Shown: piece by piece, positions 3,001-6,000 of the stretch
Layout of the letters: each line of letters begins with the position of its first letter
Position numbering within the stretch: the first letter of the stretch is position 1
Assembly (NCBI GenBank): GCA_031459625.1
Contig: JAVKIH010000013.1
Coordinates: forward strand, 1 to 22,909
Direction: 5' to 3'
Length of the DNA stretch: 22,909 nt
DNA from: Candidatus Geohabitans tengchongensis
GTDB lineage: Bacteria > Sysuimicrobiota > Sysuimicrobiia > Sysuimicrobiales > Humicultoraceae
Made by a program: the position numbers

Positions 3001-6000
3001 GCGGGCTTCACCCGCTCGATGACCGCCACGTACGGCGACTGGGCTTCCGCAGGTCCGGAAGCCAGGCTCGCGACCAGCAGGGCCAGGAGGCACGAGGCGA
3101 GGGCCAGCGGTCTCATCGCGCCACCCCCTGGGTAGGAGGTTTGTCTCAAGACTGGGGATTCCTCCATGCGCGGGGGCGGCCCGTGCCCGGGCGAAGTTGC
3201 CACGATCCTCCCGCGACATTGCCTGGCGCCTGCCGTGCGCCCCCGAGCCGGCGCGGGGGTGGGTGGGGGGCCGGAGCCGGTGCGGGTACCGGGTCTCTCC
3301 CTGCCGTGGTCGCCCCGCCCGCGAGGCGGTACACTGGCCCTGAGGGCATTCCGGCGATCACCATGGCGACCGAGGTCTTTGCCGAGGAGATCGAGGCCTT
3401 CCTCGAGCAGGTCGAGGGCGTGGCCGCCGCCCGCGTCGTCGCCACCGACGAGGGGCGCATCGACCGCATCTACCTGACCACGGAGACCCAGCGCGACGAC
3501 GCCGCGCTGCGGCGGGCGGTGACGGCGGCGCTGGCCAGCCGCTACCGCCTCCACCTGGAAGGGTGGCGGGTCCAGATCGCCCACCTGGAGCCCGATCCCA
3601 CCCGACGGCCGCACTTCCACCTCCACCGGCTCGAGGAGACGCTCACCGGGGAGGCCACGCGCGTCATCGTCGAGCTGCGCTACACCCGCAACGGCGGGGC
3701 CCGCACGACGACGGGGAGCGCGGAGGCGCCGACAGGGGGAGGCGCCGTCCGCGTCCGCACCGCCGCGCAGGCCGCCCTGGCCGCCGTGCGTCCCGTCCTG
3801 GAGGCGCTGGGGTGGCGGCCGGCGCTGGAGGCCGCGACGGTGATGCCCTTCGGCGGCACGCAGGTGGCGCTGGCCGCCGTGACCCTCGCCGGCGGCGGGG
3901 CCCTCAACGCACGGGGGCAGGTGCACATCGGCGCGGTTGCCGTCAGTGGCAGCGAGACCGAGGCGGTCGTGCGCGCGGTGCTGCGTGCGGTCGGGACGAC
4001 CGACGACCTGCCCGAGCCGCCGCGGGACCGCCGCGAGCGCATGGAGGCGCTGCGGGCCCACTACCACCGCCTGATCCGCCTGCCCGAGGCCGGGGAGGTG
4101 GCGGCGGCTGCGGAGGAGGAGAGCTTGCCGGAGCCGCCGCCGGCCGTGAGCGCCTCGGAGGCCGGCCCGGAGCCCGCGCCCGACGCCCCGCCCCAGGCTG
4201 CCACGCCTGCCGACGTCCCGCCCCAGGCTGCCACGGAAGCGCCGGCGGTGCCGGGACGCCCGTCGGTCTCGTGGGTCTCCGGAGGTGCGGATCCGGCCGG
4301 AGCGCCCAGTGCGGGAGCGTCCACCGGTGCCGCGGGGCTCCAGGAGATCCGTCCCGAAGTCGAGGGAGGTGCGGTGATGGCGACACGCGAGGAGCCGCAG
4401 CAGCGGGTGGAGGCGGTGTCCCGTCCCCCGGCGCGGCACGGGGCGCTGGAGGACGACTTCTACCGCCGCCTGGTCCACAGTGGCGTGCCCGTGCACATCC
4501 GCTGCCGGGACGGCTATGAGATCCCCGACGGCATCGTCAAGGACTTCGGCACCTACTGCCTGCTGGTGGAGAGCCAGGGGGTGGAGGAGCTCCTCTTCAA
4601 GCACGCCATCCTGACCATCCGCCCGCACCGTCCCGTGCCCCGCGACCTCCCCCTGCAGGCCTAGCCCGCCGCGTGCCCCCCGAGGACCTCCTGGAGGAGC
4701 TGCGCCGCCGCCGCGCCCGGGTGGAGGCGATGGGCGGTCCGGAGCGGGTGGCCCGCCAGCACGCCGCCGGCAAGCTCACCGCGCGGGAACGGCTGGCGGT
4801 CTTGCTCGACCCCGGCTCCTTCGTCGAGCTCGACCGCTTCGTCACCCACCGCGGCCGCGACTTCGGCCTCGACCGCCTGGAGGCGCCCGCCGACGGGGTG
4901 GTCACCGGCCACGGCACCATCGACGGCCGGCCGGTGGCGGTCTTCTCCCAGGACTTCACCGTGCTCGGAGGATCCCTCGGCGAGGCGCACGCCGAGAAGA
5001 TCGTCAAGGTGATGGACCTGGCCCTGCGCGTCGGCATGCCGGTCATCGGCCTGAACGACTCGGGCGGGGCGCGCATCCAGGAGGGGGTGGCGGCGCTCGG
5101 CGGCTACGCGGAGATCTTCTTGCGCAACACGCTGGCCTCCGGCGTGATCCCGCAGCTCTCCCTCATCCTGGGCCCCTGCGCCGGCGGGGCGGTCTACTCG
5201 CCGGCCATCACCGACTTCACCATCATGGTGCGCGGGACGTCTTACATGTACGTCACCGGCCCGCAGGTGGTGCGGGCGGTGACGCGGGAGGAGGTCACCC
5301 ACGAGCAGCTCGGCGGGGCGGACGTGCACGCCGAGCGCAGCGGCGTGGCGCACCTCGTGGCCGAGGACGACGAGGAGGCCCTCACGCTGGCACGGCGGCT
5401 GCTGGCCTACCTCCCCCAGAACAACCTGGAGGAGCCGCCGCGCCTGCCCCCCACCGACGATCCGGGCCGCATGGAGGACGCGCTCAACACGCTGGTCCCG
5501 GAGGACCCCCAGCGTCCCTACGACATGCACGAGGTCATCCGCCTGATCGTGGACCACGGCGAGTTCCTGGAGGTCCAGCCGGCGTTCGCCCGCAACCTGC
5601 TGGTGGGCTTCGCCCGCCTGCACGGCCGACCGGTGGGCATCGTGGCGCAACAGCCCAGCGTGCTGGCCGGGGTGCTCGACATCGACGCCTCGGTGAAGGG
5701 GGCGCGCTTCATCCGCTTCTGCGACGCCTTCAACATCCCGCTGGTGACCTTCGTGGACGTGCCGGGGTTCATGCCGGGCACAGCGCAGGAGTACGGCGGC
5801 ATCATCCGCCACGGGGCCAAGCTCCTCTACGCCTACTGCGAGGCCACCGTCCCCAAGCTCGCCGTCATCACCCGCAAGGCCTACGGCGGCGCCTACGACG
5901 TGATGTCGAGCAAGCACATCCGCGGCGACCTCAACCTGGCCTGGCCCACGGCGGAGATCGCCGTCATGGGGCCAGAGGCGGCCATCGACATCATCTTCCG

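Follow-up and report, generated by a model that had tools for sequence, protein, structure and literature searches.

In the textbook view Hfq is a homohexamer whose control comes from its short tails and from partner proteins, and two-start bacterial genes giving hetero-oligomers are known from CcmM M58/M35, ClpB, IF2 and CheA(L/S), in which an in-frame internal Shine-Dalgarno (SD) sequence and start codon yield an N-terminally shortened subunit, as is predicted for the gene described here. Sm/Hfq domains joined to another folded domain have been reported in the C2H2-zinc-finger-Hfq proteins of Thermococcus and methanococcal plasmids, in Pyrobaculum SmAP3 and in MscS (PMC3710371), the zinc-finger fusions likewise having a C-terminal Hfq. 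Those proteins are plasmid-borne or archaeal accessory forms, whereas the present fusion is the sole chromosomal Hfq in most of its phylum, an uncultivated one, carries an unrelated added module of about 215 aa and appears to encode a plain isoform inside the gene. In view of the archaeal plasmid proteins, the proposal of the initial annotation that this is the first Hfq with a large structured N-terminal extension was overstated. The open-access literature, supplements aside, yielded no description of the fusion, of an internal start in hfq or of DUF5317.

In the window (the whole stretch of 22,909 nucleotides analysed, from Candidatus Geohabitans tengchongensis), ORF translation, Pfam and a frame survey delimit a gene at 3363..4664, on the forward strand like all features given below, whose 433-aa long isoform consists of module X (domains D1 and D2), a helix, an acidic linker and Hfq. 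The Pfam Hfq family (PF17209) matches residues 364-425 only (36.3 bits for a cut-off of 27). It is the one match over the cut-off in a genome that is 94% complete, a second match (E 0.0055) lying inside an HtrA-like ORF; the gene thus holds the single Hfq of the genome, as had been noted at the outset. Homology searching returned 123 proteins at E<=1e-3, query included, and of the 120 listed, which are 259-473 aa long, 115 have both ends, which agrees with the conserved architecture first described; three short relatives (51-165 aa), all of the same clade, look like fragments or short gene calls. The N-module and Hfq share a single stop-free frame in 69 of the 71 loci examined, with 39 different linker lengths (79-207 aa) among the fused loci, and 67/69 of these have the full N-module. 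The fusion is real, and both of its ends are under selection. The 24 invariant N-terminal columns counted earlier in 35 sequences fell to 12 with 64 more diverse sequences. Across the phylum, PF17209 passes the Pfam cut-off in 43 of 94 genomes and matches at E<=1e-3 in 64. A canonical Hfq in genome G055 was considered as a native second copy and rejected as a probable contaminant, since it lies on a 4.7-kb contig in the order der-hfq-hflX-hflK, which we take to be typical of Proteobacteria. Genome G035 has a second Hfq-like match in an 83-aa frame, below the 90-aa cut-off of the ORF scan.

The downstream carboxyltransferase gene (4673..6223) is a conserved neighbour, present in 42/44 fusion loci with no functional link shown, and the conserved neighbourhood of the fusion gene contains no amino-acid pathway genes. 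A -10-like hexamer, TACACT (3330..3335), lies 27 nt 5' of the long-form ATG and is a candidate promoter element, two close relatives having TACAAT at a similar place. A scan of the fusion region for sigma-70 promoter and terminator consensus gave no site, and Rfam gave no match at the locus. In the assembled contigs of one metatranscriptome run the depth is flat over the fusion gene, over the genes beside it and over the intergenic sequence, and the longest record is 97 kb; the material may therefore be DNA, so that expression, strand and starts cannot be read from it.

The AlphaFold confidence pattern was reproduced, residues 1-212 and approximately 360-425 being confident and 241-356 low. 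D1 (residues 1-76; 3363..3590) is made of H2-14, E22-27, E33-40, H46-61 and E70-74, an alpha-beta-beta-alpha-beta order. The domain had been described as ferredoxin-like, which would require beta-alpha-beta-beta-alpha-beta; its arrangement is that of CDF C-terminal domains, BolA and ring-building motifs. The BolA-family protein YrbA (5nfk; Z 7.3, rmsd 2.4, 68 aligned) scores on a par with the C-terminal domains of CDF proteins, acyl-CoA ligase domains and ring-building domains. The GxxG loop of type II KH domains is absent from the D1 consensus, and an Atlas feature search with D1 reached at best 0.76, to unnamed clusters.

D2 (residues 82-214; 3606..4004) has the (beta-beta-beta-alpha)2 fold of the allosteric domain of LeuA (PF08502). 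With the N-module, Foldseek found 1sr9 at E 1.0e-5 and 3f6g at TMt 0.51, and VIA aligned D2 with 3fig (Z 9.2, rmsd 2.6, 110 aligned) and 3f6g (Z 8.6, rmsd 3.0, 108 aligned). At the sequence level, Pfam LeuA_dimer matches weakly in 19 of 103 family members (best 2.5e-4) and not in the 433-aa protein itself, NCBIfam gives just weak LeuA matches in few members, and a PDB sequence search with the family profile returned nothing below E 0.27. Profile-profile comparison with the LeuA domain gave a probability of 95% (E 3.5e-8) for the whole-family alignment and 0.5% (E 0.12, below significance) for the fusion-only alignment. Judged from the fold, the weak Pfam matches and the family-level profile, the homology of D2 with the LeuA/CimA regulatory domain is supported. 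The ligand-site motifs are altered: GxGP-V, with G, G and V invariant in 11/11 LeuA/CimA, is followed in family X by an 8-residue insertion and has its second Gly replaced by Ala in the fusion, and S-[TD]-D-I-I-E-A-S reads S197-E198-x-E200-A (S197 in 107/120, E198 in 114/120 and E200 in 118/120 listed relatives). We take these two motifs to be the ligand half-sites of the LeuA domain. The LeuA-like part of the first proposal is therefore retained, and its other part, control by an amino acid, becomes unlikely since both half-sites are altered. D2 also differs from the LeuA/CimA domains (3fig, 1sr9, 3f6g) in falling below the Pfam cut-off, in having no catalytic barrel and in its company, since it occurs on Hfq, on GGDEF proteins (CBS-GGDEF proteins in this genome) and alone. 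Four proteins of this genome bear D2: the fusion, a stand-alone X, a CBS-GGDEF protein and a lone D2. This distribution, together with the presence of D2 in a stand-alone two-domain family, fits a reusable docking or dimer module. A dimer prediction for two copies of residues 1-240 scored 0.39 (mark 0.42), which is evidence neither way.

That two-domain family, which we call X, has no Pfam family among its 30 nearest Atlas clusters. Sequence comparison indicates that the N-module is a diverged copy of it and is not specific to Hfq: X is a stand-alone protein of 200-250 aa in Bacillota, Actinomycetota, Armatimonadota, Sumerlaeota and Atribacterota that aligns over the whole of D1-D2 at 23-35% identity, with a profile E of 1.4e-27 to the window gene. 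At least 598 loci were found in species-representative genomes, in association with hpf, a micropeptide, HD-GYP and DUF5317; X adjoins HD-GYP genes in 63/80 loci and is followed by an AGCGG-repeat leader, the micropeptide, the HD-GYP gene and DUF5317, the gap after it giving no Rfam match. In the present phylum X is not followed by this cassette, a search of the genome gave no DUF5317, and the surroundings of the fusion gene show no excess of AGCG(G/A) repeats (0.2-0.9 per 200 nt). The D1 surface has also diverged: E35, H37, K47, Q48, D52, S71 and Q74 are the most conserved residues of stand-alone D1 (H37, K47, Q48, D52 and S71 being kept there) and are replaced in the fusion, so that the gene context of X need not carry over. 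A search for longer fusions of X at E<=1e-8 found none and is weak, as it also missed the known ones.

The stretch between D2 and Hfq had been taken as a 120-residue disordered linker. The low confidence of residues 241-356 was reproduced, but the linker is not featureless. A conserved helix, DRR..(L/F/M)E.(L/M)R.HY..L (residues 221-238, 4023..4076; modelled at 223-238), is found in 68/69 loci. It is followed by a Pro/Ala-rich acidic disordered tether (residues 241-338, 4083..4376) with 2 K/R to 15 D/E, and the linker is net negative in 60/69 loci. Near its end lies the IRPExxGGA motif (residues 329-337, 4347..4373), with R, P, E, G, G and A in 120/120 listed relatives and IRP or VRP in 59/69 loci. 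We considered this IRP as a mimic of the Hfq beta-5 strand, also I-R-P, that would cap the ring; it is undocked in the monomer model (pLDDT about 50) and the idea was left unsupported.

The two glycines of this motif are coded GGA and GGT and form an internal SD, GGAGGT (4365..4370), which lies 6 nt before the ATG at 4377 (M339), from which a 95-aa plain Hfq (4377..4664) would be made. A strong SD (dG<=-9) with an in-frame start is found in 69/69 fused loci versus 42/482 control windows, the loci being kin and thus not 69 independent events and the energies depending on a generic anti-SD that may differ from the 16S tail of this organism. The long-form start has a weak SD (dG -3.5), and the internal one is the stronger in 68/68. 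The SD glycines are GGA in 23/24 and GGT in 24/24 (background 14% and 9%), and GGA-GGT makes up 1.8% of the 4891 Gly-Gly pairs of the genome. In the f4 lineages without IRP (10/22), SD and start stay, coded by RGE, REE, KEE or KGG. Sequence around the internal start has less structure than the remaining linker in 46/48 and a GC3 of 0.58 versus 0.88. Family f3 has a second SD and ATG just after D2, before the conserved helix, in 20/20 loci, and all 11 loci without the Hfq-proximal site keep it, a pattern for which the tree needs at least two changes; the site thus appears to have moved between lineages, unlike in the known two-start genes. The spacer is long (12 nt) in three f1 loci. The motif is under dual constraint, as peptide and as ribosome-binding site: IRPE(R)xGGA is retained where the SD has decayed, hence part of the conservation acts at the protein level. 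Selection acts on the internal SD at the DNA level. What is new at the fused hfq is, from these comparisons, the conserved internal start; since the ribosome-binding site is kept, the gene probably makes a plain Hfq in addition to the long fused form, and we consider it very probable that both are translated. The earlier reading had missed this second, plain Hfq, very probably made from the same gene.

The Hfq/Sm core itself (residues 361-423; 4443..4631) matches 6gwk at TMt 0.91 (rmsd 1.2 over 66 columns) and has the N-terminal helix (359-373) and the short loop typical of Hfq, which bears out the Hfq fold first assigned to the C-terminus. As in the bacterial Hfqs compared (Caulobacter 6gwk, E. 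coli 1hk9, B. subtilis 3hsb), the Sm fold, the Sm2 [Y/F]KH motif (F412, K413 and H414, each in 119/120 listed relatives) and D9, K56 and H57 are present, the predicted short isoform is of ordinary Hfq size and there is an acidic disordered appendage. Unlike them, the fusion carries 338 extra residues at its N-terminus, two folded domains among them, and has an internal start, its acidic tether is N-terminal and on one isoform only (the known tails being C-terminal), and the rim Arg patch and distal Y25, K31 and Q52 are replaced. At the positions of E. coli Q8, D9, D40, Q41, F42, K56 and H57, which we take to be the proximal U-binding pore, D9, K56 and H57 are kept, F42 is Tyr and Q41 is Thr; D9, K56, H57 and aromatics at F39, F42 and Y55 are kept in about 117-120/120. 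Q8, D40, Y25, K31 and Q52 correspond to E, G, R, E and E in 119-120/120 listed relatives (the last three in 120/120), and R16, R17 and R19 to V, A/T/Q and G; Y25, K31 and Q52 are presumably the distal A-rich site and the three arginines the rim patch, both variable among Hfqs. Other arginines are conserved in the core (R368 in 117/120, R380 and R382 in 120/120, also 369). As the core lacks the rim and distal residues of canonical Hfqs, it is best called a putative chaperone.

Several other readings of the locus were weighed. An internal SD that is left over from the past or that makes ribosomes pause, the long protein alone being made, would agree with the conserved peptide motif and with how often GGAGG[T/C] occurs within genes here (3674 sites, 18% with an in-frame start 4-12 nt later), but the synonymous constraint, the persistence under other amino acids, the low structure and the f3 replacement site would be unexpected of a relic, and we regard this reading as very improbable. 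The two forms could instead differ in their timing or in the transcript that encodes them, the short one having an internal promoter, and build separate rings: in f4, a conserved box precedes the long ATG by 7-9 nt in 19/21 loci, with another box upstream of it, which would point to a long transcript that is nearly leaderless and under its own control. Any long transcript would still bear the strong internal SD, and no promoter-like site was seen in the linker (a weak objection, as the scan found none anywhere in the region); separate rings seem improbable.

Cyanobacterial Hfq binds PilB, and by that precedent the Sm core could have ceased to be an sRNA chaperone and serve instead as a hexameric platform on which X heads are gathered or a protein partner is bound. 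The replaced Q8, D40, distal and rim residues and the modest number of genomes over the Pfam cut-off point this way, while the kept residues of the U-binding pore and the new basic surface given by R368, R380 and R382 argue against it, and we judge such a loss of function hardly probable. Binding of a Leu/Ile-type amino acid by D2 at a dimer interface, controlling Hfq assembly or RNA binding, draws on the structural and whole-family profile similarities, on a GP dipeptide surviving in many stand-alone X members and on TRAP and HutP, which are amino-acid-activated RNA binders. It is opposed by the insertion after GP, the G to A change, S-E in place of D-I, the non-significant fusion-only profile, the reuse of D2 on GGDEF proteins and the neighbourhood without amino-acid pathway genes, and remains unlikely.

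We favor, with a probability of roughly 0.58, a model of mixed long/short hexamers regulated by subunit ratio and D2 docking. A paralogue of family X would have joined the hfq of the phylum in frame, and an internal ribosome-binding site would have been retained or re-created, so that one gene gives two proteins: the 433-aa X-Hfq from the weak upstream start and a plain Hfq of about 90 aa from the strong internal one (146-166 aa in part of f3). Because their Sm core is identical, the two forms probably co-assemble, by analogy with CcmM M58/M35 or ClpB, and short subunits would be in the majority in the resulting mixed hexamers. Each long subunit would add an acidic tether and a D1-D2 head on the proximal face, and the tether could compete with RNA for the basic surface; the acidic C-terminal tails of E. 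coli and Caulobacter Hfq are disordered and autoinhibitory (PMC6561178). D2 would most likely be a dimer or docking domain, pairing with itself, with stand-alone X or with the CBS-GGDEF proteins of the same cell, and D1 is a candidate for binding RNA or a partner. Control would then be exerted through the ratio of long to short subunits and through docking by D2, with no part for leucine or isoleucine. A more specific version is doubtful: D2 would dock the mixed ring onto D2-bearing diguanylate cyclases and stand-alone X, perhaps under the control of a small ligand such as a peptide or nucleotide, and D1 would be a sequence-specific RNA binder whose stand-alone relatives recognize the AGCGG leader repeats of the micropeptide/HD-GYP/DUF5317 cassette.

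The locus exposes an unnamed protein family and a reuse of the LeuA regulatory fold outside amino-acid biosynthesis. If a long and a plain subunit are indeed made from one gene, this Hfq would be a built-in hetero-oligomer of tunable stoichiometry, its start selected phylum-wide; and if the docking and AGCGG reading were true, this Hfq would be gated by a signal and tied directly into c-di-GMP signalling.

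The fused gene occupies positions 3363-4664 of the forward strand in the window and encodes 433 residues, in which Pfam places Hfq at 364-425 only (36.3 bits against a cut-off of 27). It is the one PF17209 match over the cut-off in a genome that is 94% complete; a second match (E 0.0055) falls within an HtrA-like reading frame. The AlphaFold model is confident for residues 1-212 and about 360-425, moderate for a helix at 223-238 and low in the linker, and Foldseek identifies the C-terminus as Hfq (6gwk, TMt 0.91); the structural figures of the initial annotation for the N-terminal part and the Hfq end were repeated within small margins. 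The homologue search gave 123 proteins including the query, both ends being present in 115 of the 120 listed, and the named ones carry the label Armatimonadota. The linker holds a near-perfect short direct repeat (window 4177-4238, PPQAAT twice), a mark of its growth by in-frame duplication. The usual neighbours of the fusion are a carboxyltransferase gene (42/44 loci) and a gene read from its sequence as NAD-dependent DNA ligase (36/44). Directly 3' of the fusion, the carboxyltransferase, biotin carboxylase, biotin carrier, methylmalonyl-CoA mutase, MeaB and glyoxalase-fold (epimerase-like) genes at window 4673-12775 form an ordinary propionyl-CoA pathway cluster, and a tRNA gene lies at 21137-21210 (Rfam RF00005).

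Across the phylum, the protein was matched at E<=1e-5 in 78 of 94 genomes, a tally that, like those for PF17209 and the N-terminal module family, includes the unpublished G024 and G016. No match to the fusion, PF17209 or the module family was obtained in families f5 (0/12) and f7 (0/1). In the twelve f5 genomes (G080-G091, completeness 72-100%) Hfq, the fusion and all proteins of the related stand-alone X and D2 types are apparently absent, which is a lineage pattern and not twelve independent losses. Loci were fetched for 73 of the 78 matching genomes, omitting G003, G017, G032, G053 and G074 (matches split, partial or weak), and 71 were examined once the two unpublished genomes had been dropped. 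Module and Hfq share a single stop-free frame in 69 of them, the remaining two running into contig ends; the whole module is covered in 67 of the 69 by the cut-off used, one locus being short by two positions, and G075 lacks the first half of the module in the fusion frame. Linkers measure 79-207 residues, with 39 different lengths over which one frame is kept, suggesting that the frame is under selection. Only G055 has more than one PF17209 match; its canonical hfq (L187, contig C156), flanked by der and hflX-hflK, looks like a contaminant, probably proteobacterial, and was not accepted as native. A diverged stand-alone copy of the clade's own Hfq occurs in G062 (L075:2702-3250), with an altered KH motif and no Pfam match.

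The linker, earlier described as disordered, is not featureless: R-P-E-x-x-G-G-A is invariant in 120 of 120 proteins, and a probable internal start is to be added to the earlier finding. The glycine codons GGA GGT form an internal Shine-Dalgarno (SD) sequence (window 4365-4370, forward strand) 6 nt 5' of the ATG at 4377. These codons are GGA in 23/24 and GGT in 24/24 loci, where the background use within these genes is 14% and 9%; the search pattern matched 24 of 28 loci, and among the four misses two also read GGA GGT and two are contig-truncated. Genome-wide, GGA GGT accounts for 90 of 4891 Gly-Gly pairs. Taking dG<=-9 with an in-frame ATG, GTG or TTG, where the energies refer to a generic anti-SD that may not be the host's, an SD and start lie 5-30 codons 5' of the Hfq core in 25/25 f1, 22/22 f4, 1/1 f2, 1/1 f6 and 9/20 f3 loci. 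A further SD and ATG immediately 3' of D2 is present in all 20 f3 loci, so that one or other site exists in 69/69, compared with 42 of 482 equal-sized control windows in the N-module. The IRP peptide is lost in 10 of 22 f4 loci, where the SD and start are kept under different amino acids. RNA structure from -40 to +20 is weaker than elsewhere in the linker in 46 of 48 non-f3 loci. GC3 at the internal start region is 0.58 versus 0.88, and the internal SD is stronger than that of the long start in 68/68. Against internal initiation, the loci are kin, GGAGG[T/C] occurs 3674 times inside genes of the genome with a start behind 18%, the spacer is 12 nt in three f1 loci, and f3 keeps IRPE(R)xGGA with ordinary glycine codons, so that the motif also has a role at the protein level. 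We nevertheless regard internal initiation, as read from sequence, as very probable. The fusion itself, selection on both of its parts and DNA-level selection on the internal SD are observed.

The N-terminal module, made of domains D1 and D2, belongs with the stand-alone D1-D2 family X. Searching the full library with residues 1-214 yielded 133 matches, mostly stand-alone proteins of 197-270 residues at 23-35% identity; genomes hold 1-9 family matches, f3 reaching nine. At the positions characteristic of stand-alone D1 (E35, H37, K47, Q48, D52, S71, Q74) the fusion carries other residues, and it has a separate set of invariants (T39, R50, W68, R69, R89, E91, E92, R130). The organism itself encodes one X on contig C28 (L004:1417-2127), 3' of cspA and hpf and followed by an opposite-strand frame with an HNH-like motif (by eye) where relatives carry secA. 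D2 alone caps CBS-CBS-GGDEF proteins in eight of the nine D2-type loci fetched, the ninth being a truncated X, and also stands alone; in this genome the two types are found at C7:37250-38554 (L178, D2 C-terminal) and on C23 near 1600-1987 (roughly 130 residues).

The best 80 of at least 598 X loci in species-representative genomes come from Bacillota, Actinomycetota, Armatimonadota, Sumerlaeota and Atribacterota. An HD-GYP motif is nearby in 63 (nine of the 17 without have <800 nt of downstream sequence), DUF5317 in 55, hpf in 39 and secA in 25. The gap 3' of X, roughly 250 nt, contains at least two AGCG(G/A) repeats in 72/75 (mean 3.8, compared with 0.39 on the antisense strand and 0.56 after shuffling, the shuffle covering these repeats only), a 22-30-residue peptide ending xxAGGAxxxW (pattern in 58/75) and a long-range inverted repeat (59/75). 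Among L097-L176 (e.g. L107, L114, L119) the inverted repeat encloses the AGCG(G/A) repeats, an SD and the peptide, followed by a membrane HD-GYP gene and DUF5317. This cassette, conserved in several phyla (peptide consensus MKxxxKxLLALxxLVLAGGAxxxW) and with no Rfam match in 16 loci, is a candidate peptide-to-c-di-GMP system, in which X would be the regulator that binds the leader. In the present phylum X sits between hpf (13/15) and secA (12/15) and the cassette is absent there; no DUF5317 was found in this genome.

The unusual Hfq fusion first reported is real and conserved, while the amino-acid sensor proposed with it was not demonstrated. The resemblance of its D2 to the LeuA/CimA regulatory domain holds as probable homology: an alignment of the whole family matched 11 such domains at 95% probability (E 3.5e-8), although fusion sequences alone gave no match to that profile. 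No LeuA_dimer exceeded the cut-off in the genome. The conserved Leu/Ile pocket did not hold, since the GxGP motif is followed by an eight-residue insertion in the family and has Ala for its second Gly in the fusion, and D-I of the second helix reads S-E; we take these two helix caps to form the Leu/Ile site. D1 (alpha-beta-beta-alpha-beta) matches acyl-CoA ligase C-domains, CDF C-terminal domains, ring-building motifs and BolA in a tie at Z 7-8.8, from which no function follows. An amino-acid sensor seems unlikely to us.

It is somewhat less likely still that the Hfq core is a non-chaperone scaffold. Compared with solved Hfqs, it retains D9, K56 and H57 and aromatics at F39, F42 and Y55, with roles that we presume; Q8 is replaced by E, D40 by G and Q41 by T, and on the distal side Y25 by R, K31 by E and Q52 by E. 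No Arg stands at R16/R17/R19, and R368, R369, R380 and R382 are conserved. From these residues, U-rich RNA binding appears plausible and E. coli-type annealing uncertain. Similarly improbable is the production of long and short proteins from separate transcripts, forming separate rings. In f4 loci (L037-L074) an AGGG-rich box precedes the long start, then an AGAATA-like box (19/21) lies 7-9 nt before the ATG, a position implying a near-leaderless long transcript; the pair resembles what we take to be a sigma-H-type promoter. That the internal SD is a relic, given its retention under altered peptides in f4, is very doubtful.

We favour, at a probability of roughly 0.58, a two-start Hfq in which one gene would yield a long X-Hfq and a short plain Hfq of 95 residues, assembling into mixed hexamers that the short form would dominate because its SD is stronger. 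The linker is net negative in 60/69 loci, and the long subunit's acidic tether may compete with RNA; passages of PMC6561178 describe three binding surfaces and acidic-tail autoinhibition in Hfq. The D1-D2 head could serve as a docking module, possibly for the D2-bearing GGDEF protein or X.

The fusion is not the first N-terminally fused Hfq, since PMC3710371 reports plasmid-encoded Hfq-like proteins of archaea that carry a C2H2 zinc finger at the N-terminus, besides SmAP3 and MscS as further augmented Sm domains. The X-Hfq system is not described in the passages and abstracts retrieved on Hfq N-terminal extensions and fused Sm domains, on Hfq internal starts or isoforms (those of PMC8237595 concern another gene), on CSP1-3 and Hfq, on Hfq with c-di-GMP, or on the LeuA regulatory domain; the main text of PMC11604079 on CSP1-3 lacks 'hfq', 'RNA chaperone' and 'sRNA', and the literature search gave no paper naming DUF5317. 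The fusion is more unusual than first described, by a different feature: it is probably a two-start Hfq gene.
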